In this document: positions 7,001 to 36,567 of the stretch, in pieces
How the letters are laid out: each line of letters opens with the position of its first letter
Position numbering within the stretch: position 1 is the first letter of the stretch
Source of the DNA: Turicibacter sp.
Lineage (GTDB): Bacteria; Bacillota_I; Bacilli_A; MOL361; Turicibacteraceae
Reading direction: 5' to 3'
DNA length: 64,000 bases
Assembly (NCBI GenBank): GCA_009780245.1
Contig: WRAJ01000002.1
Span: forward strand, 50,988 to 114,987
The notes under the pieces: generated by a model
What the model saw: the letters and a program-made list of their open reading frames with translations, nothing else
Told to the model about the DNA's origin: nothing
Databases searched by the model: none
Program-made: the position numbers and the translations under genes

Positions 7001-7170
7001 GTCCTTTCTTTTTTCTAACGCTTCCTATATCTTATCACACTTCTATCAATCTGCCACTAGTCAAAACGTTTTGGATGAGGATTTTCCTACTTTATCCCAC
7101 TAGATATTCGAAATTCCCGTTTAGAACGCTATTTTTCTTGCTTTTTCTGTCGATTAGTACACATTATTGC

Positions 7171-7199
7171 TTGCAAACAATCTTTAAATTAGGTATAAT
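7171..7199 (+). promoter_or_regulatory. Sigma-A type promoter for the AgrC-like kinase (TTGCAA-17-TATAAT)
   Basis: TTGCAA at 7171-7176, 17-nt spacer, TATAAT at 7194-7199, about 40 nt upstream of the kinase start. Confidence 0.5.
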
Positions 7200-7237
7200 T
7201 CAGCTAAATGATGTTGCGATTTAGTGAGGAGAAACAG

Positions 7238-8497
7238 ATGATTACAAATTATTATTGGTTTATTATTTCGATCGTTATGTGTTTTTGTGACACAGTCATT
7301 CTTTATGTGGTGGCGCACCGTGTTGGTGGGCATAAGTTTAATTTGTCTAGAAAAAAACTAACGCTTGAACTGATCATTGGTGTCATTTATGGGATAGTGA
7401 TGGGTTCTATTTTTTATTTTAATGCAGGGAATGCAACTTATCGTGTATTGGGTTACACCATTTTGACTACTTTTGTCATGTTCTTAACAAAGCGAAAAAT
7501 TGTTGAAGCGGTTATTTTGTTTTCTTTCTTCTTTTTAGTTGTATCAGTTATACAAATTGCATTCTTTTTCCCCTTCTTGTTGTTATTAGATTTAAATCAA
7601 GATATACTGAGTTTTATTGTTTATCTCATTTCAATGGTAGTAACAATTTCTTTATGCCTCGCTGTAAAATTTCATCCGATATTTTTATTATTCCAACAAA
7701 AGCTGTATTTGAAGATCGGTGCTTTTTTATTGTTTATTGTATCGAATCTAATCCTGGTCATCGCAGATTTTGATCGCGCACATATGTTAGAACAAGTCAT
7801 TATCATTAGCATCTTTGCCTTTATTACCTTTTTTGGAATCATCATGACTTTCGTTACCGCTCAGGAAAAGATTGATCAATCAAGTGATAAATACCACGAT
7901 GTTGTTAATATGTTTAACGGACTTTATGTTTCTATAAAAGCTGGTGATGATTTTCATGAAATTGAACGCCAAGTGGATGAAATTAAAAAACACCTAAGTG
8001 GAGAAGAAACAACCGCTCATAATTCCGGTGATGATCATGTTGAAAATCTTGAAGCACTTCTTTACGAAAAGCTAGCAGAGAAAAACAAAACGAACAAGCT
8101 TATTCTCGATCTTGGTTATTTTGCCCCTCATAAAGAAGTATCGTTTGCCAATCTGATGGTGATGTTAGGAATTTTATTTGATAATGCTCTAGATCATGGT
8201 AAAGATAAACCTATTTTTGTCGATCTCAACGTTTCAAGTTCTATTCTTGAATTAACCGTCAAAAATTCATCCGAAAAAAAATCAGAAAAAGCGATGCAAA
8301 AAATATTTAAAAAAGGCTATTCAACAAAAGAGAACTTGGGACATGGAAAAGGCCTTTATAACCTCGAGCAACTAGTAAGAGAACACCATACTGAACAATT
8401 TAATGCGACGCTCTCATCGGAATGCTACTACGATGAAGCGTATGAAAACTATTATTTTGCTATTACAATTGACATCACAGATAAAAACTTTCTATAA
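7238..8497 (+). CDS. AgrC-like (HPK10, LytTR-associated type) membrane sensor histidine kinase; no cognate regulator adjacent
   Basis: N-terminal half has about 6-7 hydrophobic helices. H-box KYHDVVNMFNGL, N-box LGILFDNALDH, G-box GYSTKENLGHGKGLYNLEQL. Start set at MITNYYW (GAGGAG RBS 6 nt upstream) instead of 7208. Visibly AT-rich. Confidence 0.75.
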   Translation: MITNYYWFIISIVMCFCDTVILYVVAHRVGGHKFNLSRKKLTLELIIGVIYGIVMGSIFYFNAGNATYRVLGYTILTTFVMFLTKRKIVEAVILFSFFFLVVSVIQIAFFFPFLLLLDLNQDILSFIVYLISMVVTISLCLAVKFHPIFLLFQQKLYLKIGAFLLFIVSNLILVIADFDRAHMLEQVIIISIFAFITFFGIIMTFVTAQEKIDQSSDKYHDVVNMFNGLYVSIKAGDDFHEIERQVDEIKKHLSGEETTAHNSGDDHVENLEALLYEKLAEKNKTNKLILDLGYFAPHKEVSFANLMVMLGILFDNALDHGKDKPIFVDLNVSSSILELTVKNSSEKKSEKAMQKIFKKGYSTKENLGHGKGLYNLEQLVREHHTEQFNATLSSECYYDEAYENYYFAITIDITDKNFL

Positions 8498-8506
8498 GCA
8501 CAAAAT

Positions 8507-8537
8507 AAAAAGATACCGTCACAGAGTATCTTTTTTT
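8507..8537. terminator. Bidirectional intrinsic terminator shared by the kinase gene and the AgrD-like gene
   Basis: AAAAGATAC-cgtcacaga-GTATCTTTT, a 9-bp stem flanked by an A-run and a T-run. Confidence 0.6.
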
Positions 8538-8674
8538 GATAATAATTTTGCTGGAAATTCAGGCTCTCCGATAATCATAAATATACATCTCGTATTTCCT
8601 GCTGCAATCGGAGCAAGCGCGAGCAAAAATGCTGATAGTTTAAGCAAAGCTGACCTTCTTCTAGATTTATCCAT
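8519..8674 (-). CDS. AgrD-like autoinducing-peptide precursor (51 aa), not in ORF track
   Basis: Hand translation: MDKSRRRSALLKLSAFLLALAPIAAGNTRCIFMIIGEPEFPAKLLSKKDTL. AGGAG RBS 8 nt upstream and its own consensus promoter. The layout (basic/hydrophobic N-terminal helix, Cys+4 ring candidate CIFMI, then acidic E-P-E-F-P-A-K-L tail) parallels S. aureus AgrD ...YSTCDFIM-DEVEVPKEL. Confidence 0.5.
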   Translation of the reverse strand: MDKSRRRSALLKLSAFLLALAPIAAGNTRCIFMIIGEPEFPAKLLSKKDTL

Positions 8675-8733
8675 GATAAAAACTCCTTTCATTCGCATTG
8701 CTCCCTCTCATGCAAGACTTTCTTTTATAGTTA

Positions 8734-8762
8734 ATTATACCCCCATTAACGACAAATTGCAA
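8734..8762 (-). promoter_or_regulatory. Sigma-A type promoter for the AgrD-like ORF (TTGCAA-17-TATAAT)
   Basis: Minus-strand read: TTGCAAtttgtcgttaatgggggTATAAT. Lies just downstream of the galT stop. Confidence 0.55.
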
Positions 8763-8786
8763 GACTTTTTTGAAAATTTCACCCAC

Positions 8787-10280
8787 TTATAACCGTTCCA
8801 TAAACCGTTCTACACCTGCAAGCCCCGCGTCATCCAATTTATAAACCCCGCAACACGCTAGTATTTCAGCAAATTTCAATCCAACGTCTTGCTCAATCAA
8901 GGTTTCAATTTCTTTCTCGCTCAACCCAGCGCTTCGTTCCATTAATTCGAAAAACCACGGTTGATGCTTTTTTAAATCGGCACGTACTAAAATCTCAACG
9001 TCCGCGACCACTAATGCTTGTTTCAGCGTTTCAAGCTCCGAAACTAATCGCCCCGGCAAAATGGCAAGCCCCATCACTTCAATCAGACCGATGTTTTCTT
9101 TTTTCAAATGGTGATAGTGTTGATGGGGATGAAACATCCCATCTGGGTGCTCATCCGATGTTCGATTATTCCGCAACACAAGGTCGAGCTCATAATAGCC
9201 GTCTCGCAACCGAGCAATCGGTGTAAGCGTGTTATGCGGCTGTTCGTTTGTCATCGCATAAATACCACACAACGGATCACTATAACCACGCCAAGCCACC
9301 AAAATATGCGTCGCTAAATCAACCAATTGCACAACCTCTTTGCCCCTCAACCGCAACGTCGTCAGCGGCCAATGAAGCAACTGGGCAGCCACCTCATCAA
9401 ACTTCGGAATCGTAAACGTCCGTAAAACTGCCGCCCGCGCCATCGCAAATTCATAATCCCCACCTTGAAAATGCTCATGAACTAAAATGGACCCTCCCAC
9501 AATCGGCAAATCGGCATTTGACCCGACAAAATAATGATTAAACCGATCGACAAAGGCAAATAACCGCTCAAAAGTCAACCGTGAAATGGCCATCGGCTCG
9601 TGCTCTGCTTTCAACACGATGCAATGCTCGTTGTAATACACGTAAGGTGAATATTGCAAATACCATTGCTCCTCTACCAAAGTAACAGGTACAACGCGGT
9701 GATTTTGTCTAGCTGGCCGGTTCAAATTGCCAGCATAGCCAACGTTTTCTTTACATAGTACACACTTCGGATAACCGCTACTTGGTAGTGATTTCGCCAG
9801 CGCAATGGTTTTCGGATCTTTTTCCGGCTTTGATAAATTAATCGTTAAATCAAGCTCACCGTAAGCCGTCATCACTTTCCAACGGCGATCTTTTTTAATG
9901 CGCGCAGTCCGAATATAATGCGATGCCTGACTCAACTGATAAAAATAGTCCGTTGCTTTTCTCGGGGCTTGCGCGTAACGTGCCTCAAATTCCGCATTGA
10001 CTTCTGATGGTCGCGGCATGAGCAACCCCATCACCTTGGCATCAAAAAGGTCCCGTTCATCTACCGTGTCGTGTTTTACGATGTTTTTACGAACGGCCTC
10101 ATTCAAAATTACCCCTAATATTTCCTCAATCCCTTGATCATCCCTAGTCGCTTCACGCTCAAACGTCTCAACCTCTAATAATGCCAGCAATTGATTTACC
10201 ACAAAATCAGTATCAGCCGGTTGTAACAAACCTTGTTTTAATCCATAATCTACCAACTCGTTTATGGCTTGATTAATCAT
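8787..10280 (-). CDS. galT: Galactose-1-phosphate uridylyltransferase (family 2, long Firmicutes type)
   Basis: 497 aa with a family-2 GalT sequence (…LVHEHFQGG…). Immediately downstream of galK. Confidence 0.9.
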   Translation of the reverse strand: MINQAINELVDYGLKQGLLQPADTDFVVNQLLALLEVETFEREATRDDQGIEEILGVILNEAVRKNIVKHDTVDERDLFDAKVMGLLMPRPSEVNAEFEARYAQAPRKATDYFYQLSQASHYIRTARIKKDRRWKVMTAYGELDLTINLSKPEKDPKTIALAKSLPSSGYPKCVLCKENVGYAGNLNRPARQNHRVVPVTLVEEQWYLQYSPYVYYNEHCIVLKAEHEPMAISRLTFERLFAFVDRFNHYFVGSNADLPIVGGSILVHEHFQGGDYEFAMARAAVLRTFTIPKFDEVAAQLLHWPLTTLRLRGKEVVQLVDLATHILVAWRGYSDPLCGIYAMTNEQPHNTLTPIARLRDGYYELDLVLRNNRTSDEHPDGMFHPHQHYHHLKKENIGLIEVMGLAILPGRLVSELETLKQALVVADVEILVRADLKKHQPWFFELMERSAGLSEKEIETLIEQDVGLKFAEILACCGVYKLDDAGLAGVERFMERL

Positions 10281-11606: not shown

Positions 11607-12395
11607 ATGAAATTATTCGGTTCAGATTATGATGGGACGTTTTACAAACATGAAAATCGCGGTGAAAATGAATTAGCAGAAAACATCGCAGCAGTAGAAA
11701 AATGGCGTGAAGCTGGTCATCTTTTTGCCTTTGCAACTGGTCGCTCAATCGGAGAAATGGCCTACGATCGCATCATCAACCACATCACATTCGATTACCT
11801 CGTCGGTTTAAACGGCGGTATCATTATTAATCACAAAGACGAAGTGATGTTCAGAGCACTTATTGAGCCAAGCGTTGCCAGTGAAATCGTGGACCTTATT
11901 CAAGCGCGAAACTTCGGACGCTTATCTGTGACAGACGGTTTTAAAGGTCACTACCCCATTGCCCTTTTTGAAGGTGAATACGCAGAAAGCTTAGCTCAAT
12001 ACCCAGAAATTGTTGCCAACTTCTCCTTGACCTTAGAAGAAGCATTGGCAAATCCCGTCGCCATGATCGCACTTTCAACCGCAAACACAGAAGAAGCCGT
12101 TGCTTTTGCGACCCTAGTGAACGAGACTTTCGCTGGCCAAGTCACCGCTTTTGCAAACTTGCAACACGTTGATATCGCTGCTGCTGGGACTTCGAAAGCA
12201 ACTGGGCTTGAATACGTTGCGAAGCGTTATAGCATCGATAAAAATAACGTTTTTGGCATGGGTGACAGTTACAATGACGTGCCGATGCTTGAAAATTTCA
12301 ATGGCTTCACCCTTCCAGAAGCAAACGATGAAATAAAGTCATTCGCTGATAACGTTTATGAAACGGTGGCGGCTGCCATCAAGGATGTCATTTAA
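11607..12395 (+). CDS. Cof-type HAD-IIB phosphatase
   Basis: MKLFGSDYDGTF (DxDGT motif) and a C-terminal GDSYNDVPML motif. Start moved to ATG 11607 (AAAGGATGG RBS upstream). Confidence 0.8.
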   Translation: MKLFGSDYDGTFYKHENRGENELAENIAAVEKWREAGHLFAFATGRSIGEMAYDRIINHITFDYLVGLNGGIIINHKDEVMFRALIEPSVASEIVDLIQARNFGRLSVTDGFKGHYPIALFEGEYAESLAQYPEIVANFSLTLEEALANPVAMIALSTANTEEAVAFATLVNETFAGQVTAFANLQHVDIAAAGTSKATGLEYVAKRYSIDKNNVFGMGDSYNDVPMLENFNGFTLPEANDEIKSFADNVYETVAAAIKDVI

Positions 12396-12403
12396 ATATC
12401 AGC

Positions 12404-12455
12404 AAAAAGCCAAGAAGTTGAAGTGCATGACGTGCCTCTCATTTCTTGGCTTTTC
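12404..12455. terminator. Stem-loop between convergent genes (AAGCCAAGAA ... TTCTTGGCTT)
   Basis: 10-bp stem with a long loop, flanked by an A-run and a T-run. Confidence 0.45.
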
Positions 12456-12462
12456 TATTTAA

Positions 12463-15400
12463 CTAAAACCAGCAAGACTGATCAGAGTATCTATTCTCTT
12501 GCACCCAATTGCAGCAAATGTTGCATTGGCGATATTGGCGCTTTTTTACGGGAGGCTGGCACCAAGAAGGTGACACATGGTGACAACTGCAGCAATCACA
12601 TTGGCATGGCTGAGATGGTCTTGGAGGTTTAGGTGGTCGCGGCTTCGGGTGTGGCCGAGGTACTTTGACGATTGGTGGGTTCGGTTCAATCACTTCTACT
12701 TCGTTTCCGCCGTTTCCAGGGTTAACTACCGCAACATTCGGCTGCAATTGTCCAGCCGGGACGCGGTCGCTTAAAGTAACTGGCAAATAGACATGAGCCG
12801 TTTCACCCGGCGCAAGTGCAAATTCAGCCGAGAGCTTCAAGTTTTGATTATCACCTAAATTAACCAATCTTCCGCGGTCGCTGGCTGGCACGCCTGTCAA
12901 CCTAATGTATCTTGGTAAGACATCCTCAATCGTAAATGGATTGGCTGTTGGGACAGATCCTGTATTAGTAATGGTTAATGTGTAGTAGAAGGAATCACCT
13001 GGCATGAGCTCTTTGTCAGAGGCTTGCTTAGTAACTTCTAATTCTGGGACTCGAATCGCAACGATTGGTGGTACCAGTTCGATGACAAGATTCGGAGTTC
13101 CACTACCACCTGGATCAACCACGACGGTGTTTGGTGTCAACTGCCCTTCTGGGGCACTCGTAGAGGCGATAACAGGTAAGGTGATGGTGATGCTTTCACC
13201 AGCTGCGATGTGGTTGGCTACTGAAAGATTCAAGTCGGTATTCGTTCCGTTGTTCGTGACGATACTGCCATCTGACGCCGTTGGTGTGCCATTTAAAGAG
13301 ACGTACTGTGGTAGCGTATCAGTGATAGTAAACGGACTAGCGGTTGAAATGCTGCCGCGATTAGTAATCGTAATGATGTAGTTGAACGTTTCACCTGGTG
13401 AGATGGTATTAGAAGTATCGTTAACTTTGTTTACTTCTATTTTCGGATTAGCCACGATCGGTGGTGTGATTTCTACGCCTGGTGTTGGCGTATCGCCACC
13501 TCCTGGGTCTACCACAATCGTGTTTGCTGCTAGTTGTCCGGTCGGTGCATTGGTTGCTGCGACAACTGGAATGATCACCGTGATCGTCTCACCTGCTGGA
13601 ATGCTAGTTGCAACTGACAGGTTGAGGTTAGTATTCGTTCCCGAGTTAGTCACCGCACCTGCTGTTGAAGTCGGTGTGCCATTCAACGTCACATATGGTG
13701 GCAACGTATCGGTGATCGTAATCGGATTGCCCGTTGCAGCGCTTCCTGTGTTTTGAATGGTCACGATGTAATCAAAGGCATCGCCTGGTGCAATCGTGCT
13801 AGTGGTATCATTGGTTTTGGTGACGCTTAAGCCTGAGATAATAACGGTTGGTGGTGTAATTTCTATGCCTGTTGTTGGCGTATCGCCGCCTCCTGGGTCT
13901 ACCACAGCCGTATTTGACGCAAGTTGCCCCGCTGGTGCCGTGGTTGAGACCGTCACTGGTAACGTGATCGTGATCGTGCTACCTGCTGGAATCGCAGTTG
14001 CTACCGAGAGGTTGAGATTAGTATTCGTACCAGTGTTGGTCACTGTACCAGCGGTGGATGAAGGTGCGCCAGTTAAAGTGACATACTGAGGCAGTATATC
14101 GGTGATGGTGATTGGATTTTCTGTTGAAACAGAGCTAGTATTAGTAATCGTGATGATGTAGTTATAAGAAGTGCCCGGTGGAATTGGTGCCGTTGTATCG
14201 TTGGTTTTCGATACGGTTAATTCAGCTCTCACATCAGGATCAGGTCCCGTGACAATCGGTGGATTTGGATCCACACCTGTCCCTGTTCCGCCATTATCAC
14301 CTGGATCTGCGACAGCGGTATTAGCAGCTAATTGTCCCGCTGGTGCTGTGGTTGAGACGGTCACTGGTAAGGCGATGATAATGCTACCGTTTGGTGCCAA
14401 GCTCGTTGCTACCGAGAGATTAAGTGCCGTGTTCGTGCCTGAATTTGTTACTGCCGCCCCGTCTGATGAGGTTGGTGTGCCGGTTAACGTGACAGATGGT
14501 GGTAAGTTGTCGGTAATCGTAACTGGATTGGCCGTTGGAAGGGTCCCGATATTGGTGATGACCAAGGTATAGTTAAAAGTTGTCCCAGGTGGTATTGGCG
14601 CTGTTGTATCGTTGGTTTTTGTGACTGTGAGTAATGGGTCGGCGATGGTTGGTGGATTTGGTTCGATACCCGTTTCTGGATCACCACCGCCACCTGGATC
14701 AACGATTGCCGTGTTGGTCGTTAATTGTCCGGTTGGCGCATTTGTTGCTGCGGTAACCGGCAGTGTGATGGTGATGCTGCCGTTTGGCGCAAGGCTTGTT
14801 GCCACCGAGAGATTCAGCGCAGTATTAGTTCCTGAATTCGTCACCGCTGCGCCATCGGATGAAGTTGGCGTGCCGGTTAAGGTGACAGATGGCGGTAAGT
14901 TGTCCGTGATGGTAATGGGGTTCGCCGTTGCTAGTCCACCTGTGTTCGTAATGGTGATGATGTAGTTAAAGTTGGCGCCTGGTGGAATCAGAGTTGGTGC
15001 ATCGTTGGTCTTTTCCACGAGCAGTTGTGGTAAGGCAACGACAGGTGGATGTGGCTCGACCGCTGTCACTGGTGGACCATCACCACCAGGGTCTACCGTT
15101 GCTGCGTTTGCTGCTAGCTCACCAACAGGCGCTGTACTTGATACCGTTACTGGCAAGGTCACCGTGATACTACCGTTTGGTGCCAGACTGGTTGCTACGG
15201 CGAGGTTCAGCGCGGTATTAGTTCCTGAATTCGTCACTGCTGCGCCATCGGATGAAGTTGGCGTACCGGTTAAGGTGACAGATGGTGGTAAGTTGTCGGT
15301 AATCGTAATCGGATTCGCTGTTGCCGTGCTACCTATGTTTTGAATGGTCAACAAATAGTCAAAGGTCGTTCCCGGTGGTATTGGGCTTGCTGCATTGTTG

Positions 15401-16284
15401 CTCTTTGTCACCGTTATCCCATTGGTAGCTACTGTAGGTGGTGTGATCTCAGTGCCCGTTGCTGGTGGGTTGTTATTACCTGGATCCACGGTTGCGGCAT
15501 TGGCTAATAGCTGACCGGCTGGTGCAGTCGTTGATACCGTTACTGGCAGGGTCACTGTCGTTGTGCCACCTGGTGGAACACTGCCAGCTACTGACAAGTT
15601 CAAATTCGTTGCTGTGCCTGAATTCGTCACTGTTCCTGCTGGTGACGTCGGTGTACCAGTCAAAGTGAGATACTGAGGCAATGCATCCGTAATGGTAAAC
15701 GGATTTGCCGTTGCTTGATTCCCGTTGTTAGTAATGGTGATTGTATAGTTAAACGTTGCTCCTGGTGGAATTGATCCGACTACATCGCTGACTTTTGTCA
15801 CCGCCACCGGATTGGCACGGTAGTTGATATCGTAATTGTTTAAGACGTTATTGCCAATGGAAATGGCTGCTGGATCGGCAATGCTTGGCGTGCCGGTTAA
15901 GCTTGGCGCAGGTCCTGTGTAAGCAACGCTCGCCGTGTTCCCCTGAAATGAATCAGTCGGATCAATGACCAGATTCGGATAATTGGTCGGTGATACTGGT
16001 GGAAACGAGTAAGGTGGTGCCGTGGCATCGAAGATCGCACCGCCATCTCCCGTTGTTGCCGCGTTGCTTGTATAGGTTGTACCGGTTGAAGCGTACATCG
16101 GTGTTGTTTGTCCGGTTGCAGGTTTTTCTAAATAGACACCTCCCCCGTTATTGGTTGCCGTATTTGTGTTATAGGTACTTCCTGTATCCGTTACAGCACC
16201 GCCAGCCGCCACATAACCACCGCCCCCATTAGCAGCCGAGTTATTACTGATGGTATTGGCAGAATTAAAAATTAAAGTTGCCAT
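12463..16284 (-). CDS. 1273-aa leaderless repeat protein: N-terminal Pmp-like GGG beta-helix repeats, 8 DUF11 (conserved repeat domain) units, Pro/Lys-rich linker and Cys-cluster C-terminal tail
   Basis: GGAG RBS 8 nt before ATG. N-terminus MATLIFNSANTISNNSAANGGGGY has no signal peptide. Eight units of about 125-130 aa of the type VTKTND..PPG..F.Y...I.N.G...A.NP.TITD.LP..V.L.G.P....G.V.N.G..T.LNL. C-terminus PRPHPKPRPPKPPRPSQPCQCDCCSCHH...QCNICCNW...SCWF. Confidence 0.85.
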   Translation of the reverse strand: MATLIFNSANTISNNSAANGGGGYVAAGGAVTDTGSTYNTNTATNNGGGVYLEKPATGQTTPMYASTGTTYTSNAATTGDGGAIFDATAPPYSFPPVSPTNYPNLVIDPTDSFQGNTASVAYTGPAPSLTGTPSIADPAAISIGNNVLNNYDINYRANPVAVTKVSDVVGSIPPGATFNYTITITNNGNQATANPFTITDALPQYLTLTGTPTSPAGTVTNSGTATNLNLSVAGSVPPGGTTTVTLPVTVSTTAPAGQLLANAATVDPGNNNPPATGTEITPPTVATNGITVTKSNNAASPIPPGTTFDYLLTIQNIGSTATANPITITDNLPPSVTLTGTPTSSDGAAVTNSGTNTALNLAVATSLAPNGSITVTLPVTVSSTAPVGELAANAATVDPGGDGPPVTAVEPHPPVVALPQLLVEKTNDAPTLIPPGANFNYIITITNTGGLATANPITITDNLPPSVTLTGTPTSSDGAAVTNSGTNTALNLSVATSLAPNGSITITLPVTAATNAPTGQLTTNTAIVDPGGGGDPETGIEPNPPTIADPLLTVTKTNDTTAPIPPGTTFNYTLVITNIGTLPTANPVTITDNLPPSVTLTGTPTSSDGAAVTNSGTNTALNLSVATSLAPNGSIIIALPVTVSTTAPAGQLAANTAVADPGDNGGTGTGVDPNPPIVTGPDPDVRAELTVSKTNDTTAPIPPGTSYNYIITITNTSSVSTENPITITDILPQYVTLTGAPSSTAGTVTNTGTNTNLNLSVATAIPAGSTITITLPVTVSTTAPAGQLASNTAVVDPGGGDTPTTGIEITPPTVIISGLSVTKTNDTTSTIAPGDAFDYIVTIQNTGSAATGNPITITDTLPPYVTLNGTPTSTAGAVTNSGTNTNLNLSVATSIPAGETITVIIPVVAATNAPTGQLAANTIVVDPGGGDTPTPGVEITPPIVANPKIEVNKVNDTSNTISPGETFNYIITITNRGSISTASPFTITDTLPQYVSLNGTPTASDGSIVTNNGTNTDLNLSVANHIAAGESITITLPVIASTSAPEGQLTPNTVVVDPGGSGTPNLVIELVPPIVAIRVPELEVTKQASDKELMPGDSFYYTLTITNTGSVPTANPFTIEDVLPRYIRLTGVPASDRGRLVNLGDNQNLKLSAEFALAPGETAHVYLPVTLSDRVPAGQLQPNVAVVNPGNGGNEVEVIEPNPPIVKVPRPHPKPRPPKPPRPSQPCQCDCCSCHHVSPSWCQPPVKKRQYRQCNICCNWVQENRYSDQSCWF
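12714..15790 (-). repeat. Tandem coding repeats (8 x about 380 bp DUF11 units)
   Basis: Periodic protein repeats. The antisense frames also stay open (ORF-track entries 13004..15343), as expected for repetitive, compositionally biased DNA. Confidence 0.85.
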
Positions 16285-18947: not shown

Positions 18948-21900
18948 ATGCCAGCTACTATTCCTTTAACTTGTAATGCTACTTTCATTCAGTTTGTTGG
19001 TCAGCCGACCGAGTGGGTTAACATTAATCTTGTGACGGGAAAGCCAGTTTCACAAGGTTTTCTCAATCCAGCTGATTATGTTAACGCAATTGGTTACAAC
19101 ATTCTTGACAATTTTTTATACGGCTATGATTTGACAGTGAATCAAATTGTCCGCATTGATGCAGGCGGTAATCTGACGATGCTTGGACTTCCAACTGGGT
19201 TAACAGCAACGACAAATGGTTATAACACGGGTTGTTTTGATGATAGAGGTTATTTTTATCTTTATTTTTCTCAAATAGCGAGAATGTACGTGGTTGATTT
19301 GCGACCAGGCTCTGCCAGTTACATGCGACTTGTTGATCCAACAAACGGTTATGCTGTGCAGACTTCCTCGTATGGCGTTGCCCTTGTTAACGGCACACCG
19401 AATATTGCCGACTGGGTTTGGCTACCATCAACGGCAACAACGGGTAGTAACACCAATGGTTTTCTGTATGGCATTGTTAATGGTGGCGCGATGGCACGGG
19501 TTAATATTGATAACGCCCATGTCATCAATATGACAACTACCGGTCCAGCTTATGCGAGTTCTTACGGGGCAATGTCGGTGGATGTGGATTTAAACGTTTA
19601 CGCAGTTGCGAATGAAAATGGCAATGTGTATCGCTATACGATTAACGGTACCACCGCAACAGGGCTGTATTTTTCTAACACTTATTTTGATTCACACAAC
19701 GACGGGGCAATGTGCCGCATCGCGAAAGTTTTAGTTGATTTCGGTGATGCGCCTGATACGGGTATCGGCAATGGTGCTGGTAATTACAGTACCCTTCTTG
19801 CAAAAAATGGACCACGCCATCAGGTCATCGATGGGTTAATGCTCGGAACAACAATCACCGCTGAAGACGATGCTTATCAAAACACAACCGCAACTGGTGA
19901 TGATTTATTACAAGGCATTCAAGATGATGGACTCGCAACACCGTTGCCAATTCTTTCACCGAGTGCTACTTCTTACCAATTGAATGTCACAGCAACAAAT
20001 AACTTAGCAGCACCAGCAAATCTATACGCCTGGGTTGATTTTAACCAAAACGGCTTGTTTGAAGTCACAGAATCGACGGTTATTACCGTGCCAGCAAATA
20101 GTGGGACAGCGACTTATCCGCTGGATTTTACAGTCCCAAGCGGGACTAAACTCACCGCCGGTAATACTTTCGTACGCCTTCGTTTAACAACGGACACGTT
20201 AACTCAAGCTTCTGATAGTCTCGGACAAGATAACGCCAGCCTTGGACCAGCAGGCGACGGTGAAGTTGAAGACTACCTGTTGCAAATTAGCCCACTTGCT
20301 GATCTGCAAGTGACTAAAATAGCGGACGTCGATGCGATTCAAGTTGCCGATGAAATCACCTATACCATTACCATCACCAACAACGGTCCCGACACTGCTA
20401 CTAGCCCATTGCTAGTTGATGCCATCCCAGCCGAACTTAAAAGTCCGACCTACTCCATTGATAATGGCATCACTTGGCAAGATGTTCAACTCGGCTCAAT
20501 GACCCTACCTGATTTGACCGTTGGCAGTAGTTTTAACGTTTTAGTAAAAGGAATCGTTGTTAAATCAGCCACCGGTCAAATCGAGAACATCGCCACGGTT
20601 ACCGCAACGACACCCGATCCGGACATGAGCAATAACACGGCAACCGTCACAACAACCATTACCCCAACCGCGGACGTTGGCATCGTTAAAATCAACACGC
20701 CACCAAACGTTGCACCTGGCGATACGCTCACCTACAATCTCATTATTAGCAACGCCGGGCCAGTGGATGCGACTAATACCACAATCACTGATGTCGAAAC
20801 CAAAGCCCTGCTCAATCCTGAATTTTCATTCGACGGTTTCACTTGGAGTCCTTGGTCCGGCAACATCAATTACGGGACACTAGTAGCAGGAACTAGTACG
20901 ACCGTTTATCTGCGTGGAACAGTCGATGCAACAGGCGCTTCTTCTTTGATTAACGTTGCCAGCATTACCAGCGACATTCTTGATCCGAATCCCGATAATA
21001 ACACGTCATCAGCAACCACCACGATTACGGATGTGCCAATACCCACTGAAGCCGATCTTGACATTGAGAAAAGCTTAATCGTTCCGGATCTAGTTCCCGG
21101 CACGAACGCTAGTTACCAATTGGTCGTAACAAATCATGGCCCCTCAGCAGCTGAAAACATTGTCTTGATTGATCCCTTACCAAATGGTTTTGTTAGTCCG
21201 CAGTATTCAATTGATAATGGCACCACTTGGCAAGCTTGGACTGGAAGCCTCTCGCTCGACACAATGGCGGCGGACGAGGTGAAAACGGTGCTAATCGACG
21301 CTCTCCTATCACCAGCCACGCTGGATGCCATCACCAACACGGCGACGGTTTACGCCTCAACCCCAGATCCCGACATGACCAACAACACTTCCACCACCGA
21401 AACGGCCATCGACCGCCAAGCAACCATCAACATTACCAAAACCGCCAGCCCGAACCCAGTGAACGTCGGTAACGATTTAACTTACACCGTCTACGTTCAA
21501 AACGAAGGACCATCTTACGCACAACATGTCGTTGTCAAAGATGTCGTTCCAACCGCTGTAACAAACCCTGTTTTTTCAACCGATGGCATTAGTTGGTCAC
21601 CTTGGACCGGGGCATATACAATCGATAGCCTACCCTCTGGCGGCGCCCGCACCCTGTTAATCCGTGGGACAGTCTCAAGCAGCGATGATGAAGTTTTGAC
21701 TAATAGTGCTAGCGTTACCAGTGACATTACACCAGAAACACGTGCAACAACTGATACGCGGGTGAGGAATCAAGCAGACCTCGGAATTGTAAAATGGACA
21801 ACTACGAATAGCGTTGTCGTGGGTGATACACTTGCTTTCACCTTAACCGTCACGAATAATGGCCCTTCGCCAGCAACCGATGTGCTAGTCACCGATCCTG

Positions 21901-27419: not shown

Positions 27420-30400
27420 TTAAGAATCGAATAATCGAAGTAACATTCTAGTCAACGGAGCGCTTAAAAAAGGAGGTAATGGCGGTAGCGGTGGAATCGG
27501 TGGAACGCCTGGGATTGGTGGCCCTGGAATCGGAGGAATGCCCGGTATGTCTGGCAGTCCTGGTAAGCCTGGGATCCCAGGAATTCCCGGTACTCCTGGC
27601 ACACCTGGAATCTCAGGTAAACTCGGAATCTCAGGGATGCCTGGTAAACCTGGTCTTTCTGGTACCTCTTGCTCTGTGGCGACCACAAATGACAATTCAC
27701 TCACGTTTAGTCCTGACCAAACGTGCTGATTTCTTGTTTCTGCATAAGCGTCACCTAATAAGCCAGGTGCATAAGCCAGACGAGCTGCTAGGTTCAAATA
27801 CGCGTTAAGTGCTTCATCTGCTGTTAGGAAACCATTAACCGCAAACACAGGGCTATGCGCTAATGTTCTTGGCTCAACACCTGCAGCGTCCTCTACCGCA
27901 TCTACGACACCTGGGAGGTTACGGAATGGCAAGTTGCGTACAGGAATACTACTGAATAGTCGATCTGTCGCCGGCACAACACTGTAATTGTCAATGGCGA
28001 AAATCGTTACTTCTGTTTCACCATCTAAATCGGTTAATTCAATTTCGAAATAACCGTCAGCATCGATCGTGATACGAGTAGCCTCTTCATCACCAATTTG
28101 CGCAAACACAGCAAGGTTATGTTGTGTACTGACAGCTCTTTGTGGTGCCTCTGCACGCCAAATATCAAATGTCACATTAGCTTCTTCAGCCGTTGCTACC
28201 CACTCATCAAAGGCATTTCCTACTAGTGTGACGTCTGAGTCTGTGACAACAATTGTCGCACCGTTTTCAACGATCTGGTCATCAATTGAAACGTGAAGCT
28301 CAGGTGCTGTGTTATCGACAGAGAACTCAAACAGCGTATCAAATGTCCATACCCAGTCATTGTGGAACTCGGCTTGGTACACTTCTAAAATGATAACAAA
28401 ATCACCTTCGTCAAGTGTTCGCCAATCAGCACCTTCTGTCCCACGATGAACAAAGTTTCCTTCGCCGATAAGGGCATGGCTAGTTAAATCTCCTCTTTCG
28501 TCTTCACAATGCAGCGGGAAGAACCCTACTGGTAAGTAAAGCCCGTCGAAGATAACCGCACGATGTTGTTGACCTAGTGTCAAACGTGCGCCAGGATTAT
28601 AAGCTGCACCTCCAAAAATCTGATTAGGTCCCGCACCTGCAGGAACTTCATTGCTACCAGCAAATCCAACAAGTGCATCTGCAAACTCATCACTCATCCA
28701 ATTGTTTCGGTTTAAACCTTCAACATCTTCAAAGATCCATGCTCTTGTTGCAAAACTATTATTTGGCGTAAAGAGCAGTCCAAGTTCACTACTTGTGACA
28801 TTTTGTGCCTCATCTCCTGTTGAAATAACAGGTCGGTATAAACTCATATTAGTTAAAACTGGTGCACGTTCTCCCACAACAGCGGCAAATGGTAACACAG
28901 CGACCGTTTCACTACCAGCGGATACATTGATGAATCCTTCGTAGTGTCCAACTGCTGCCGTTACTGGCACCGTCATGGTGACATTAAAGTCTACAGACGA
29001 GTTTGCAGGAACTGTGATTTGACCAACGCTTGTCGGTCCAACACTGGTCACGATAAACACACCGTTGTCCGCAGCTGATTGATTGACTGGGTGATCATAA
29101 TCAATAAACTCAGTTTCAAGTGTATAAGTAATCGCTGCATTGCTATTGTTCACAATCGTTGCCGTTAACGTTCGGTCAATGGTTGTTTCTCGTTGATCTG
29201 GTAAATATCTGTTCACACCACCAAAGCTAAACGAACCTGTTCTGGTTGAGGCAAAGTCAGTCGGCGTTTGATCAAATGGATCTAAGAATGACGCCACACG
29301 TGGATCTAAAAGAACGCGATCATAAGTGACGTAGATAACACTATTGGCGTGAGCAGCTGCATACACATCGGCTTGTCCAGCTCCCGTGTCAAACACACTA
29401 CCGCGGATATTGGCTTGTGTTTGTGCGGCTGCTGTGAAGTGCGGCACATCTAGCCTAATCGCCGTGTTCATTAAACGCACTTTGATTTCTTCATTGCGCC
29501 ACTGTCCACCATTTTCACGGCTGTATTCCACAAGTAAAGCCACAGCACCTGCGATATGCGGTGCAGACATCGACGTTCCACTTGAGCTGGCATAGCCGGT
29601 GCCATGCCAGCGTGGATTAGCTGACCAAACGTTCACACCGTGAGCGCCAATATCTGGCTTGATTTCATAACTCATGCCAATTGGACCACGAGATGAAAAG
29701 TTTGCCAGTCTAACAGCTGGGACAACGATATAAGTACCTGTTAAGTAAAACGTACCATAATCGACATCTGATGCTGCAATTTCTTCTGCTAATGCGAGCC
29801 CTGCAGGGTTCTCAATGTTAAACATTGGCACCCATGCCGCATTTACCCCTTGAGCCGCAGGTGGCGCCTGTCCCGGACCGTTAATGGTTAATACACCAGC
29901 AAGTCCTAAGTGACGAGCTTGAGCTGAAACGTCAACAAAAGGCGATCCACGACGAACTAAGACAAAGGCACCTGCTAACTCATCTAAACCGTAGGCATCA
30001 ACTAATAATTCAAAGTCATTTGCTGTACCAGAACCTGGCTCATCTACTGGACTGCCACTTCCTTCATGGCGCGGCATCACAAAAATACGATTGGTGCCAT
30101 CTTGTGGGAATCCATCCATGTCACTAATTAAGCGTCCATTTTCTACACGAAGAGGTGCCGTGTTATTCGTAACCGGCAGTAGTGGTGCATTTAATTCAGT
30201 GCTCAATCCATTAAAGGTAGCACCAATTGCCTCATAAGCATCGCTCATGGTATCCTGGAACGCAGCAACCGTAATCGCCTTTGTTGCAGGAGCTGGGTCA
30301 GTTGTCGTATAGAAGCCATTCAAACCAGCACCAGAGTTACCAGCCGAAAGGACGAATGTAATTTGATGATCCTCAGAAAGCATCAAGTTATTGATTGCAG

Positions 30401-31757
30401 TCCCTGATACGGCATTGGTGGTCGCTGAGCCACCACCAAGTGACATGTTAACAACATCTGCGCGATCGATATAACTCCACTCAATACCACGCATGATCGT
30501 GGTGACACTGCCGCCACCAGGTCCTAACACGCGGTAAGCGATCATTTGTGCCTCAGGGGCAACACCAAGAATACTGTTGTTACGACCTGTGTCACGACCG
30601 ACAATAGTTCCAGCAACGTGCGTACCATGAGAAGTCGCACCAGCAAGTCCTGATGCCGCATTATGCAGGGGAACAGGTGTCCCAGGGAACGTCTCCATTG
30701 GGTAGTAATGTGGGAAATCGTGCTCAGGAATAATGGTATGGAACCCTTCCATCAAGTTACGCCCGAGGAAACGATAGCCACCGTACCAAATTGGCTCATC
30801 GTCATACTGGAATCCGCGGAAATTATTTGCAGGAGGTGTCACACCAGCTGGCACGCCAGGGAATGGTCCATCAAAGTTTGGATCAAGCGGGTAGCGATCA
30901 TCCGCACTACCTGGTGCTCCAAGCCAACCGATCCATGTTAATGAATCATTCGTCAGGTGATTAGCCCCTCTCGCATGCATCTCTGCTAGCGTTGGGAATG
31001 CCCCTTCAAACGCAGGGTGACGATAGTCAATCCCTGTATCAATGACGGCAACTAGTACACCAGCACCTCTGTAACCAGCATCGTGCATGGCATCAGCGTT
31101 CATTCTCGCACGACCAGGCAACATACCAGGAGGGTTTCTATCTGCTTCGTCTGTTGCGATATGATGCGCAACAGCCTCTTCAAGAACATCCATATCCACT
31201 GGATCTAACTGAATGGTTTCATCAGGAAAAACGGCTCTAACGCTATCAAAAGCCACAAGTGCTTCAACCTGATCAGCAGGCACAACTAGGGATACCCCGT
31301 TAATGGCATAACGGTATTCTTCCTGAATCGTATAAGCCGTCGTTCTTGCACGAGCGCCACCGAATAAATCATCTAGCTCATCTGTAAATAGATCATGTGC
31401 CGTTTCCACATTATTGACAGCTTCATTATAGCTTAAAGCAAGACCTTCATCCATTGCTTCTGCTAGCTGAACTTGAGCAGGTGGTGTTTCAAAAACAACG
31501 ATGACACTAACAGGACTATCGTCATCAGGTAATGCATAATCACCATTAAAACCAATAAGACCTTGATTCAACTCTCTTTCCAAGCGTACTTCATCAAGAA
31601 TATCTGATCTAGCTTCGTCTTCAGCAATGATTGATGCGACATCTTGCTCTTGCACATCGGCATCATTTGCTAATACGCGAACAAATCCGATATCAAGAAT
31701 AAGTATGAAAGCCAAAACGAGTGCTAAAACTTTTTGAAACTTTTTTGCATGGTTCAT
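27420..31757 (-). CDS. Large secreted subtilisin-family (S8) serine protease, lactocepin/C5a-peptidase-like, with Pro-rich C-terminal tail
   Basis: Signal peptide [30 protein letters not shown]. Catalytic triad blocks [29 protein letters not shown]. Start set at ATG 31757 (GGAG 9 nt upstream). No LPXTG motif. Confidence 0.9.
27470..27665 (-). repeat. Low-complexity (P-G-[IVL]-P)n coding repeat at the protease C-terminus
   Basis: [60 protein letters not shown]. All alternative frames stay open (ORF-track artefacts 27464..27808). Confidence 0.8.
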
Positions 31758-32041
31758 TCGTAACATCTCCTTTTTGTTATCCGACAATATTATCAAATCT
31801 CATCTAATATAATCAATGGTTTCTACATTTTTTTTAAGGATGATAACGTTCCCAAAGTCGAAATCACCTCAGAGATACACATTCTATTTCTATCGAATGT
31901 CTCTTGCTATTCTGATAGAATTGTTGATTTTAGTCAGAACTAAAGCACTACCTCACATCATTTGAGCACACTTTCTCTATTAAATGCGAATTTATTCGCA
32001 AACTTGTGGTAGATTATTTTCACTTTTTTATCGTTCCACAT

Positions 32042-35395: not shown

Positions 35396-35434
35396 AAAAA
35401 TGAGAGCCATCTTTAATAGATGGGTTCTCATTTT
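35396..35434 (-). terminator. Intrinsic terminator at the end of the his operon
   Basis: Minus-strand read: AAAATGAGAACCCATCT-attaa-AGATGGCTCTCATTTTT. The hisC stop lies inside the stem. Confidence 0.65.
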
Positions 35435-36473
35435 AATAGGTCAAGATTTTTCTTCAAGCAGGCGATCACGGTAGTGTTGTCCGCTGTTGTTCCGATGGTA
35501 ATGCGAATACCAAATGGGAACGAGCGGATGATATAGCCTGAATCTAGCACCTTTGCCCCGATCTCCATCCCAAGATTTCGCTTGCTTGGAATAAAGATGA
35601 AATTCGCTTGCGACTCGTAGTAAGGGATGTTATTGGCTTCGAGGAATGCTACATATTGCGCTATCCCTTTGGCATTTTCAGTCAGCGACTTTGCGACAAA
35701 TTTTTGATCATCAAGTGCGGCAATGGCAGCTTCTTGTGCCAGTGTCCCGGTATTAAACGGCAACCGTCCTACTTCTAAATCTTGGATAAAATCGGGATTC
35801 CCGACACCAAAGCCAATACGGAATGAAGCCAGGCCGTAGACTTTGGAGAACGTCCTTAGCACAACTAGGTTCGGGTACTGGCTGATCAGTTTTAATGTCT
35901 CCGGGAAATCTTTAGCTGTCACATATTCCACGTAAGCTTCGTCGACGGCTACCAGCACTTCTTTTGGCGTGCGATCGAGGAAGCTTTTTAAATCCGCTCC
36001 GCCTACGTAAGTGCCAGTCGGGTTGTTAGGGTTGCAAATCCAAATGATTTTGGTTTTGTCGTTGACCGCTTTTAGCATCGCCTCTAATCGTGGGTGCCGT
36101 TTTGTAGCGGGATGTTTTGGATGTCGGCGCCTTCGATGATGGCGTGGTGTTCGTATTGCGGAAACGTCGGATGAGCTTGGATGATGTTGTCACCGGGCAT
36201 GAGGACACTGCGGCTAATCATTTGGATCACTTCATCGCCGCCGGCTCCGAAAATGAGCTGCTTTTGGTCGACTTGCAAAAATTCGGCAACCTTTTCTTTG
36301 AGTTTTGTCGATCCGCCATCCGGGTAGCGGGCAAACGCTGTGAAATTCGTTAACACCTCATTCACCTTCGGCGAGGCACCAAACGGATTCTCATTGGACG
36401 ATAATTTCACACCCCCTTTGGATTTTCCTGGTACATACATCTGTAACTTCTTCATTTGCGGTTTTACGTACAT
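35428..36473 (-). pseudogene. hisC: Histidinol-phosphate aminotransferase, interrupted by a 1-nt frameshift (or a sequencing error)
   Basis: Two abutting ORFs, 36084..36524 (N-terminal part, ...IPLQNGTHD*) and 35428..36078 (MLKAVNDKTKIIWICNPNNPTGT...). The DNA reads CAC GAT TAG AGG CGA TGC; one extra T would give H-D-L-E-A-M-L-K-A-V and a continuous HisC. Start at MYVKPQ (AAAGGAGG RBS upstream). Confidence 0.8.
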
Positions 36474-36567
36474 CGTTGTGGACCTCCTTTTATTAATAGC
36501 AATTATGAAAGTGTCGTTTATCATGTGTTTTTCTCAAAAAAATGACACTTTACTCTGTTCACTTTCT

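Follow-up and report, generated by a model that had tools for sequence, protein, structure and literature searches.

Split and incomplete agr loci have already been described, and the locus analysed here does not overturn the agr model. In Clostridium autoethanogenum, as also in C. ljungdahlii and relatives, Agr system 2 comprises agrD2C2 without agrB and agrA (PMC8748961). C. difficile possesses an orphan AgrC-like kinase, RgaS, and an orphan VirR/AgrA-like regulator, RgaR (PMC10602386). Autoinducing peptides (AIPs) closed by a serine lactone are known, for example from Hungateiclostridium thermocellum, and have been described as rare (PMC8251862). Large surveys of autoinducing peptides have searched for AgrB (PF04647) first and then for TIGR04223-type ORFs beside it (PMC8251862, PMC12180512), and a Pro-x-x-Pro motif has been proposed as the AgrB recognition site (PMC8748961).

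Here we analysed a stretch of 64,000 nucleotides (hereafter the window) from a MAG named 'Turicibacter sp.' at NCBI (locus-tag prefix FWE07). An earlier note had read a 51-codon ORF on the minus strand (8519..8674) as an agrD gene, by resemblance alone; this reading is now supported by several lines of evidence. We consider it probable that the ORF is an agrD-type gene and that, together with a gene for an AgrC-type kinase, it forms a signal-receptor cassette whose other two agr parts are encoded elsewhere. The ORF is present with exactly the translation originally given, comprising the leader MDKSRRRSALLKLSAFLLALAPIAAGNTR, the core C-IFMI(I) and the tail GEPEFPAKLLSKKDTL. It ends 21 nt from the convergent gene for the 419-aa kinase.

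A Shine-Dalgarno sequence, AAAGGAG (8683..8689, minus strand), lies 8 nt before the ATG as the earlier note had claimed, and GGAG(G) is kept 7-10 nt 5' of the start codon in 11 of 11 homologous loci examined. The sigma-A-type promoter TTGCAA-17-TATAAT is likewise found where it had been placed (8734..8762, minus strand); it matches 10 of 12 consensus positions, and 25 nt separate it from the stop codon of galT. Matches of this kind are no rarity, with nine found in the 2-kb region against 8.3 expected; nonetheless, relatives keep a promoter at the equivalent position before the peptide gene. The reading frame is under purifying selection, with dN/dS values of 0.15, 0.26 and 0.20 for three close pairs of peptide genes, and in 5 of 11 loci the antisense frame contains stop codons. 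When 1.84 billion proteins were searched exhaustively with the 51-aa peptide (phmmer), matches within the family had E-values of 8.5e-7 to 5e-4. The small ORF is a real gene, and more than a product of chance.

At least 13 distinct homologues of the peptide were identified, 36-53% identical to it. Every homologue with readable flanking DNA is convergent with, and just 3' of, a homologue of the window kinase. Seen from the kinase side, 11 of 12 loci with a readable 3' flank carry a family peptide gene in convergent orientation, 14-64 nt past the kinase stop codon; the sole exception, L007, has no recognisable peptide ORF downstream of its kinase gene. Except at L007, the peptide gene is maintained in those relatives that keep the kinase, a point that the earlier note had raised. 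The layout is not unique, agrC and agrD being always convergent in this clade.

The predicted product is built like AgrD, whose precursors measure 40-60 aa and begin with a leader that targets the membrane: it has 51 aa and a basic N-terminus followed by a hydrophobic stretch (residues 9-26), as do 13 of 13 homologues. At position 30 the window peptide and P0010 have Cys, ten homologues have Ser and one has Thr, giving the column of cyclisation nucleophiles found in AgrD (2 Cys, 10 Ser, 1 Thr). In family alignments, this column is followed by five hypervariable residues and then by a tail, G-E-P-x-x-P-x-K, that is invariant across the family and has the charge, the Glu and Pro residues and the P-x-x-P of AgrD follower peptides. 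Separately, a lipoprotein signal peptide with a lipobox Cys was considered and rejected: 11 of the 13 homologues have Ser or Thr in place of the Cys, and an L-x-x-C lipobox is lacking.

The family tail aligns with EVEVPKEL of S. aureus AgrD. A profile-profile comparison (hhalign) with canonical AgrDs gave E = 1.6e-4 with the tails aligned, bearing out the likeness noticed earlier. In this alignment the window Cys lies 11 residues before the second tail Pro, rather than 10, rendering the ring size uncertain. Thus, while Cys30 does occupy the nucleophile column, the five-membered ring proposed in the earlier note may instead have six members.

Curated AgrD models did not reach threshold on the peptide. 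Against TIGR04223 (quorum_AgrD; cutoff 19 bits) the window peptide scored 13.5 bits (E = 0.064), near but below the threshold, and the L002 homologue 18.8 bits. A search with the Pfam AgrD model PF05931, which had been suggested as a check, returned no match at E <= 1 on the window peptide and none on three homologues. An agrB gene, beside which agrD is typically encoded, does not accompany the peptide gene in the 64-kb window. It does so only at the orthologous loci L002/L003, one lineage of about ten in the family, where the peptide gene has as its neighbour, at a distance of 180 bp, a gene with a significant Pfam match to AgrB (PF04647, E = 4e-25) and the catalytic pair GGxH...C. At more distant Lachnospiraceae loci, AgrB is directly followed by small ORFs ending ..SMVLFGEPPFP and ..SSIVLFGEYPFP, the former of which, out of 5,853 ORFs, gave the family profile its best match outside the family. 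The conserved position, orientation and sequence in 13 distinct homologues, the Cys/Ser/Thr column between leader and tail, the AgrB-linked orthologous locus and the near-threshold TIGR04223 match together support an AgrD layout, and we regard the peptide as a predicted agrD-type precursor.

The kinase gene (7238..8497, plus strand) has a ribosome-binding site, GAGGAG, 6 nt before its ATG, and the chosen start is supported by homologues that likewise begin MI(D/E/N)NY. It carries its own sigma-A-type promoter, TTGCAA-17-TATAAT (7171..7199, plus strand; 10 of 12 consensus positions), whereas in relatives the kinase gene lies 3-25 nt behind a regulator gene and lacks a promoter of its own. Pfam assigned HATPase_c (31.6 bits) and HATPase_c_5 (PF14501; 24.7 bits against a cutoff of 22). 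HPK10 kinases are defined by the motifs of the Grebe and Stock classification, and the H-, N- and G-boxes that the earlier note had reported are all present: KYHDVVN (H220), LFDNALDHG and KKGYSTKE..GHGKGL. Their core residues, including H220, D221 and N224, are invariant among five family kinases. The protein thus combines the HDxxN H-box with the HATPase_c_5-type GHKL domain of AgrC/HPK10 kinases. Its six to seven hydrophobic helices within residues 4-210 agree with a polytopic sensor of 5-8 TM segments and no large extracellular domain.

Full-length kinase homologues were found at 35-55% identity. AlphaFold2, run on a five-sequence alignment, produced a low-confidence model (pLDDT 58), with which Foldseek retrieved a generic DHp+CA kinase core, AgrC chimeras appearing only at ranks 35 and 40; these matches confirm the kinase core and do not separate AgrC from other kinases. 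A PDB sequence search with the kinase family profile gave no AgrC at E <= 1 and only weak, generic matches to kinase ATPase domains. On its motifs, Pfam domains and membrane topology, we predict that the kinase is AgrC-like.

Between the converging genes lies a perfect 10-bp hairpin (8507..8535), A/T-rich and flanked by A and T runs, which overlaps the final five codons of the peptide ORF together with its stop. It folds with -9.1 to -9.7 kcal/mol (z = -2.8 and -1.9); having only two G-C pairs, it went uncalled in the terminator scan. The bidirectional terminator of the earlier note is thus confirmed in part, as a hairpin that may act as a weak bidirectional terminator. The kinase and peptide promoters form a 31-nt inverted pair, 71% complementary; beyond this imperfect pairing of two facing promoters, no insertion scars were found around the cassette. 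A k-mer comparison with relatives found no convincing shared LytTR-type direct repeats in the window promoters. Repeats with a period of 21-22 nt occur upstream of the peptide promoters in L026/L028 and in L001. The 25 nt that separate the near-consensus peptide promoter from the galT stop codon leave no room for LytTR boxes outside galT, and from its sequence the expression of the peptide gene looks constitutive or driven by read-through, rather than autoinduced.

The window cassette is one of three paralogous cassettes, since the MAG holds two further complete regulator-kinase-peptide loci. The three differ in ring sequence: CIFMI, SFAFW and SFLMF. The accessions MCL2558988/8990 (genes adjoining the window), MCL2559331/9332 (an orphan regulator and its neighbour, locus tag FWE07_02485) and MCL2559949/9950 (locus tag FWE07_05630) fall in one numbering series, and the contigs of the putative genome have a GC content of 0.436-0.442 and tetranucleotide correlations of 0.945-0.951. 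The assignment of the window, L024, L026 and L028 to a single genome rests on MAG binning, this accession numbering and composition, and is probable on that footing. NCBI annotation appears to skip the paralogous peptide P0013 of this MAG, which has no accession although its neighbours do.

Neither agrB nor a LytTR or receiver gene was detected in the 64-kb window and 2.7 kb upstream, using tblastn with cognate regulators and AgrB, a custom AgrB profile and Pfam on about 50 ORFs; the reported absence of agrB and agrA nearby thus holds over this whole span. At E <= 10, tblastn revealed no regulator remnants in 7001-7237 and no AgrB remnants across the window. The AgrB profile search that had been proposed was negative in the window, and AgrB was not found in the approximately 125 kb inspected around the three cassettes and the orphan regulator of the MAG.

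With respect to the regulator, the description of the kinase as an orphan holds for the window genome and not for its family, as every relative with a readable 5' flank carries a regulator gene directly upstream of the kinase gene. At L001, L002, L004, L007, L010, L016, L026 and L028, this encodes a REC domain and a weak LytTR domain (20.7 bits against a cutoff of 22.6); precomputed PF04397 hits exist for P0019, P0027 and P0033, and NCBI names them 'LytTR family'. P0033 (MCL2559332.1) is the orphan regulator of the MAG, standing alone on another contig; the two samples in which it occurs are also those of the window. The L001 pair is the nearest match to the window kinase and to P0033 (55% and 56%), and the identity profiles of these two proteins over eight loci correlate at r = 0.87, as compared with r = 0.96 for paired kinases and regulators. 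P0033 is intact, and about 30 of 35 nt of its promoter are identical to the L001 operon promoter. The suggestion that the regulator would lie elsewhere is borne out by this protein, which has co-diverged with the window kinase and is a candidate for its partner.

The loci L001 and L033 have a regulator gene and nagB in common at 83-85% DNA identity. A 2,155-bp segment of L001 that carries the kinase and peptide genes corresponds in L033 to 346 bp of unrelated sequence. In this comparison the kinase-peptide cassette behaves as a unit, readily gained or lost. No kinase or peptide-gene remnants were found beside the orphan regulators of L024, L030 and L033. Orphan regulators without a kinase also occur in other organisms.

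We propose the following scheme. The precursor would enter the membrane via its basic, hydrophobic leader. An AgrB-type peptidase encoded elsewhere would recognise and cut off the GEP-x-x-P-x-K tail and link the new C-terminus to the thiol of Cys30, giving a thiolactone ring C-I-F-M-I, or C-I-F-M-I-I if cut one residue later. Once the leader had been trimmed and the peptide released, it would bind from outside to the sensor domain of about seven TM segments, whereupon the kinase would autophosphorylate on H220 and the phosphate would pass to P0033. Such an arrangement departs from canonical agrBDCA, four co-directional genes under one autoinduced promoter: the window has C and D only, convergent and with separate promoters, the candidate A is on another contig, and B was not found in the DNA inspected. 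Against the scheme stand the approximately 125 kb without AgrB, the scores below threshold for the curated AgrD models, an AgrB neighbour in just one of about ten lineages, and a near-consensus promoter with no space for LytTR boxes outside galT.

Several other readings were weighed against this one. That the small frame is non-coding intergenic sequence might be argued from the abundance of fifty-codon ORFs and the lack of a Pfam match to the peptide. There is practically no chance of this, the idea being refuted by the conservation data, namely the motifs shared by 13 distinct homologues, the dN/dS values of 0.15-0.26, and ribosome-binding sites and promoters that are likewise conserved. A more substantial alternative is that the adjacent kinase senses the peptide as a secreted pheromone matured without AgrB, for example through Sec export, signal-peptidase cleavage and another tail protease, to yield a linear or differently modified product; in that case AgrD-like precursors would have become independent of AgrB in this clade. 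AgrB is missing near the peptide gene in some nine lineages out of ten, none lies beside any of the three cassettes of the MAG, the leader resembles a signal peptide (basic N-terminus, hydrophobic core, conserved A-P), and the linkage is to the receptor gene, not to an enzyme gene. We nevertheless judge this unlikely. A canonical AgrB does adjoin the peptide gene in L002/L003, the Cys/Ser/Thr column and P-x-x-P tail are what AgrB chemistry and recognition need (PMC8748961), an unlinked, shared AgrB has already been proposed for C. autoethanogenum agrD2 (PMC8748961), and our AgrB search reached just a fraction of the MAG. A bolder reading, likewise improbable, is that the clade has made agrD-agrC a self-contained movable cassette uncoupled from agrB and agrA, three of which are carried by one genome. 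In its strongest form these genomes would lack any AgrB, and the precursors, switching between Cys, Ser and Thr, would owe their maturation to an enzyme that has yet to be connected with agr.

The cassette might also be a decaying remnant of a rearranged regulator-kinase-peptide(-AgrB) locus that no longer signals. The window is indeed the sole family locus with readable 5' sequence that lacks an upstream regulator, the cassette is easily gained or lost, and regulators stranded without a kinase are known in other organisms. Decay is nonetheless quite unlikely. Neither ORF is truncated, the kinase retains every residue that is invariant in the family, and each gene has a near-consensus promoter and a strong ribosome-binding site; the orphan regulator of the MAG is itself intact, retains the ancestral promoter and has co-diverged with the kinase. 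Less probable still, indeed hardly credible, is a product that remains in the membrane and modulates the adjacent kinase in cis without any diffusible signal, in the manner of small kinase-regulating membrane proteins. Its small size, hydrophobicity, strict co-location with the kinase gene and want of an adjacent processing enzyme would fit such a role. However, five hypervariable residues set between conserved flanks are the mark of a ligand that determines specificity, and the conservation of the nucleophile, the AgrB gene beside the peptide gene in L002 and the resemblance to AgrD models also argue against it.

If the preferred reading of a signal-receptor cassette is correct, the locus indicates that it can be the signal and its receptor, and not the enzyme and the signal, that stay together and are duplicated, lost or moved as one. 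The family, found so far in termite-gut Firmicutes, would offer naturally occurring variants with Cys, Ser or Thr, and one gut bacterium would have three channels in parallel. As its peptides fall below the TIGR04223 threshold and do not lie beside agrB, surveys that begin with AgrB would miss them.

Compared by described layout, the locus is akin to agrD2-agrC2 of C. autoethanogenum, which is also a two-gene locus for an AIP precursor and an AgrC-type kinase. There too AgrB is proposed to be encoded elsewhere, as is the regulator, and several AgrD paralogues occur per genome (PMC8748961). The two differ in that agrD2C2 is described as an operon, whereas the window pair is convergent with a promoter for each gene, an orientation conserved clade-wide; furthermore, the ancestral state of the window clade has a regulator upstream of the kinase. 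C. difficile RgaS/RgaR provides a precedent for an AgrC/VirS-like kinase and a cognate LytTR-type regulator working as a pair from separate loci (PMC10602386). RgaS has no peptide gene beside it and does not respond to AgrD1, while the window kinase keeps its peptide gene. The Ser of most family members and the Thr of one imply lactone rather than thiolactone rings, as in serine-lactone AIPs; unlike those, the window peptide and P0010 have the usual Cys, and the family switches between Cys and Ser among close relatives. With S. aureus agrBDCA the system shares the same four roles, an AgrD built of a leader, a Cys followed by four residues and an acidic tail containing Pro, a polytopic AgrC with an HDxxN H-box, a REC+LytTR AgrA, and hypervariable signal and receptor parts. 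Gene order and linkage are wholly different. The S. aureus AgrD leader is an amphipathic helix whereas that of the window peptide is signal-peptide-like, the window peptide has one extra residue between Cys and tail, and the activator-dependent promoters of S. aureus agr contrast with the near-consensus promoters of the window.

The kinase family is rare: the window kinase (AgrC-like, 419 aa; 7238..8497, +) has only five relatives among 5.8 billion clustered proteins, all 35-55% identical over their full length. Further kinase loci were taken from metagenome and genome scans, and the surrounding DNA was fetched. In 11 of the 12 loci with a readable 3' flank (L007 being the exception), a small ORF homologous to the window peptide lies 14-64 nt past the kinase stop and is convergent on the kinase gene. 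An exhaustive phmmer search of the 51-aa peptide against 1.84 billion representative proteins revealed further members (E = 8.5e-7 to 5e-4); both of those with retrievable context converge on a kinase gene or kinase-gene fragment. The family comprises 13 distinct peptides with 36-53% identity to the window peptide. In 11/11 loci examined, the ATG is preceded by GGAG(G) at 7-10 nt and by a -35/-10 pair at approximately 45-50 nt, and Nei-Gojobori dN/dS for the three closest peptide pairs was 0.15, 0.26 and 0.20. The peptide ORF is a real, conserved gene, retained in relatives of the kinase. Higher-termite gut metagenomes are the source of the relatives, and the MAG of locus L010 belongs to the Th196 series of PMC7024585. 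That MAG is labelled 'Defluviitaleaceae bacterium' (Clostridia) and that of the window 'Turicibacter sp.' (Bacilli/Erysipelotrichales), a conflict at class level.

The ORF (8519..8674, -; product MDKSRRRSALLKLSAFLLALAPIAAGNTRCIFMIIGEPEFPAKLLSKKDTL) carries the signals that the earlier note had described, with AAAGGAG 8 nt before the ATG and a TTGCAA-17-TATAAT promoter (8762..8734, -; 10/12 consensus positions). The kinase gene is preceded by GAGGAG at 6 nt and by a TTGCAA-17-TATAAT promoter of its own (7171..7199, +). Promoter-like matches around the cassette formed by the two genes occur at chance frequency (9 observed, 8.3 expected), so the hexamers by themselves prove nothing. The two promoters (7170-7200 and 8733-8763) form a 31-nt, 71%-complementary inverted pair bracketing the cassette; the peptide promoter -35 region AAAGTCTTGCA recurs 47 nt downstream in the 5' UTR (8711-8724 and 8758-8771), and a near-palindrome ATTGCTTGCAAACAAT contains the kinase -35. 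The stop codons of the two genes are 21 nt apart, and an A/T-rich, 10-bp perfect hairpin (8507-8535; ~-9.5 kcal/mol; z = -2.8 and -1.9) covers the last five codons of the peptide ORF. A shared bidirectional terminator had been proposed here. The hairpin is indeed present between the convergent genes, but it was not called in the terminator scan because it contains only two G-C pairs, and it would therefore be, at most, a weak terminator. A 129-codon antisense ORF (8403..8792, +) overlaps the peptide gene, and in two relatives (L018/L028) the equivalent frame was annotated as a gene of 144-146 aa. Stop codons break this frame in 5/11 loci, identifying it as a shadow of the peptide frame and its annotation as probably an artefact.

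Alignment of the family revealed a basic, K/R-rich N-terminus, a hydrophobic stretch closed by a conserved A-P, a nucleophile column occupied by Ser in ten sequences, by Cys in two (the window peptide and its homologue P0010) and by Thr in one, five hypervariable residues (IFMII, ILVLV, ALMFI, AFFLL, LFILI, QLAWV, FLMFT, FAFWI, MLLII etc.) and, directly thereafter, an invariant G-E-P-x-x-P-x-K tail. By sequence, this is the AgrD layout previously proposed for the window peptide: the nucleophile is conserved, the core varies while its flanks are maintained, and a Pro-x-x-Pro follower comes last. Pro-x-x-Pro is a proposed recognition site of AgrB (PMC8748961), and replacement of Cys by Ser is known, though termed rare (PMC8251862). 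The suggested check with Pfam PF05931 gave no match to the window peptide; against NCBIfam TIGR04223 (quorum_AgrD, cutoff 19) it scored 13.5 bits (E = 0.064) and its L002 homologue 18.8 bits, both below the cutoff. When profiles of nine family members and of seven canonical AgrDs were compared, the match had E = 1.6e-4 and 51% probability and paired EPEFPAKL with EVEVPKEL. In this alignment, one more residue separates Cys from tail in the window peptide than in S. aureus AgrD. Thus, the five-membered ring CIFMI envisaged earlier could be formed with an additional linker residue, or the ring could be CIFMII.

In Pfam analysis, the kinase matched HATPase_c (31.6 bits) and HATPase_c_5 (24.7 bits; cutoff 22); a HisKA domain was not detected. 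In a five-member alignment, K-Y-H-D-x-V-N (H220) is invariant, as are the core residues of the N-box (LFDNALDHG in the window) and G-box (KKGYSTKE..GHGKGL), bearing out the AgrC-type boxes first noticed. By hydropathy and AlphaFold2 secondary structure, residues 4-210 contain six to seven TM helices, of which the final one continues into the H-box helix. The AlphaFold2 model is of low confidence (pLDDT 58), and Foldseek retrieved generic DHp+CA kinase cores with it, AgrC chimeras appearing at ranks 35 and 40. The AgrC-like designation consequently draws its support from motifs, domain type, architecture and partners rather than from any specific resemblance in structure.

In every relative with an available 5' flank (L001, L002/3, L004/5/6, L007, L010, L016, L018/28 and L026), the kinase gene is preceded at 3-25 nt by the gene for a regulator of 243-249 aa, which has REC and, in addition, a LytTR match just under threshold. 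Searching with a profile of seven such regulators identified 19 family members, among them P0033 (247 aa), which shares 56% identity with the regulator of L001 and is encoded in both samples that contain the window (ENA ERZ27257297 and SRR5215140). Its gene lies on a 63.8-kb contig between the genes for a 177-aa membrane protein and pyruvate:ferredoxin oxidoreductase, with no kinase nearby. By exact-sequence look-up, the two genes just upstream of the window are MCL2558988/8990, P0033 and its neighbour MCL2559331/9332 (FWE07_02485), another family locus MCL2559949/9950 (FWE07_05630) and a third MCL2559488. All are named 'MAG: Turicibacter sp.', and their accession and locus-tag spacing is consistent with a single submission. 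The contigs have a GC content of 0.436-0.442 and a tetranucleotide correlation of 0.945-0.951, which also fits one genome. The window kinase and P0033 share their closest relatives, the L001 pair (55% and 56%) and then L002 (40% and 46%); across eight loci, the identity profiles of the two proteins correlate with r = 0.87 (r = 0.96 for kinases and regulators of paired loci), and the P0033 promoter retains ~30/35 nt of the L001 regulator-kinase operon promoter. On these grounds we take P0033 to be the putative relocated partner of the window kinase, in keeping with the expectation that the regulator would be encoded elsewhere.

The 64-kb window yielded no AgrB, LytTR or receiver domain by tblastn with four cognate regulators and the L002 AgrB, by a five-AgrB profile against all ORFs of at least 50 aa, or by Pfam on about 50 ORFs, upholding the reported absence of agrB and agrA nearby. 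In the same MAG, the AgrB profile found no match within ~10 kb of any of three cassettes or the orphan regulator. At L002/L003 (kinase 40% identical), a 202-aa protein with the GGxH...C pair (Pfam AgrB, E = 4e-25) is encoded divergently, 180 bp from the peptide gene. In distant Lachnospiraceae MAGs from the kinase scan, small ORFs directly follow AgrB genes and end in ..ISMVLFGEPPFP (L011) and ..SSIVLFGEYPFPEK (L013); the agrB-agrD pair of L011 is convergent on the kinase gene. When the 13-member profile was searched against 5,853 ORFs of unrelated or distant loci, this L011 ORF was the top non-family match (E = 0.25), a weak match, yet telling in its position.

The window MAG contains two further complete loci, paralogous to that of the window, each with regulator, kinase and convergent peptide: L026 (P0019; core SFAFW) and L028 (P0015; core SFLMF). 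The L028 cassette is followed by a second LytTR regulator (247 aa) and a second HATPase_c_5 kinase (400 aa) at 12446-14405, where no second peptide gene was recognised. Loci L001 and L033 have the regulator gene and downstream nagB in common (83-85% DNA identity). Between them, the kinase gene, peptide gene and a 55-codon ORF of L001 (852-3006; 2,155 bp) are replaced in L033 by 346 unrelated bp (9167-9512), a clean indel. The kinase-peptide pair thus behaves as a cassette open to insertion, loss or movement while the regulator remains. Regulators also occur as orphans at other loci: P0020 and P0021 (87% and 80% identical to that of L001) lie by themselves behind an Mrp antiporter operon. In L004/5/6, part of the locus is duplicated in tandem (10164-10656 in L004), which gives a 110-aa kinase C-terminal fragment and a second, diverged peptide gene that is convergent and 74% identical to the first (core SPFLI). 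A 53%-identical variant of the window peptide, P0009, on a short contig from the same sample, suggests co-existing pherotypes.

Just upstream of the peptide-promoter -35, L026 (~12230-12290) and L028 (~12250-12310) contain CGAATCCCCTAAAAAGA / CGAATTCCCTAAAAATGA as direct repeats of 21-nt period, and L001 contains ATATTGCCAT / ATATTGACAT with a 22-nt period; by sequence these resemble LytTR boxes. The window peptide promoter showed no counterpart; it starts 25 nt beyond the galT stop and leaves no space for regulator boxes outside galT. Expression of the window peptide may therefore be constitutive, or read-through from galKT, rather than autoinduced.

Elsewhere in the window, a hisC-like aminotransferase gene of the his operon (35428-36524, -) is split between frames into 146-aa N-terminal (36084..36524, -) and 216-aa C-terminal (35428..36078, -) parts, which may reflect a frameshift, pseudogene or assembly error. 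A SAM (S-box) riboswitch (50477-50566, -; 73.3 bits) precedes a homoserine dehydrogenase/methionine-biosynthesis cluster, and a lone phage holin family gene (43133-43549, +; Phage_holin_4_1, E = 4e-34) lies between the his operon and the methionine-biosynthesis genes. Another gene (50872-52269, +) encodes a BclA-like protein that combines collagen triple-helix repeats with a BclA C-terminal domain, a hint that the host forms spores and has an exosporium. Also encoded are two giant DUF11/CLIPPER-repeat surface proteins (12463-16284, -, 1273 aa, ending in a Cys-rich tail; 18948-22910, +, 1320 aa) and a 1458-aa S8 subtilase (27420..31796).

We consider it probable that the window belongs to an agr-type system split over three places, to which it would contribute the signal and receptor genes, P0033 the regulator, and an AgrB encoded elsewhere the enzyme making the Cys30 thiolactone. 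A single AgrB could possibly serve all three precursors of the MAG through their common GEP-x-x-P-x-K tail. Maturation of the peptide independently of AgrB would accord with the blank searches around the three cassettes, but the AgrB beside the L002/L003 peptide gene and the invariant tail speak for the enzyme, and we regard this reading as unlikely.

A decaying remnant that no longer signals would explain a cassette parted from its regulator; set against the intact invariant residues of the kinase and the P0033 promoter, it appears distinctly improbable. That the peptide modulates the adjacent kinase as a cis-acting membrane protein draws on its hydrophobic stretch and conserved pairing, but would leave aside the variable core between conserved flanks, and we give it very little credence. 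A chance ORF is scarcely credible beside homologues at 11 of 12 loci and the low dN/dS values.

The split system favoured here has precedents. Clostridium autoethanogenum and relatives possess an agrD2-agrC2 locus that, like the window cassette, is without agrB and agrA, its processing being assigned to the distant AgrB1 (PMC8748961). RgaS/RgaR of C. difficile is a split pair of AgrC-like kinase and regulator (PMC10602386), as the window kinase and P0033 would be. New here are the convergence of agrC and agrD as a conserved arrangement, its behaviour as a cassette, the presence of three cassettes within one genome and the Cys/Ser/Thr switching at the cyclisation column, as is a peptide family that scores too low for the curated AgrD models and that AgrB-anchored mining does not reach (PMC8251862, PMC12180512).
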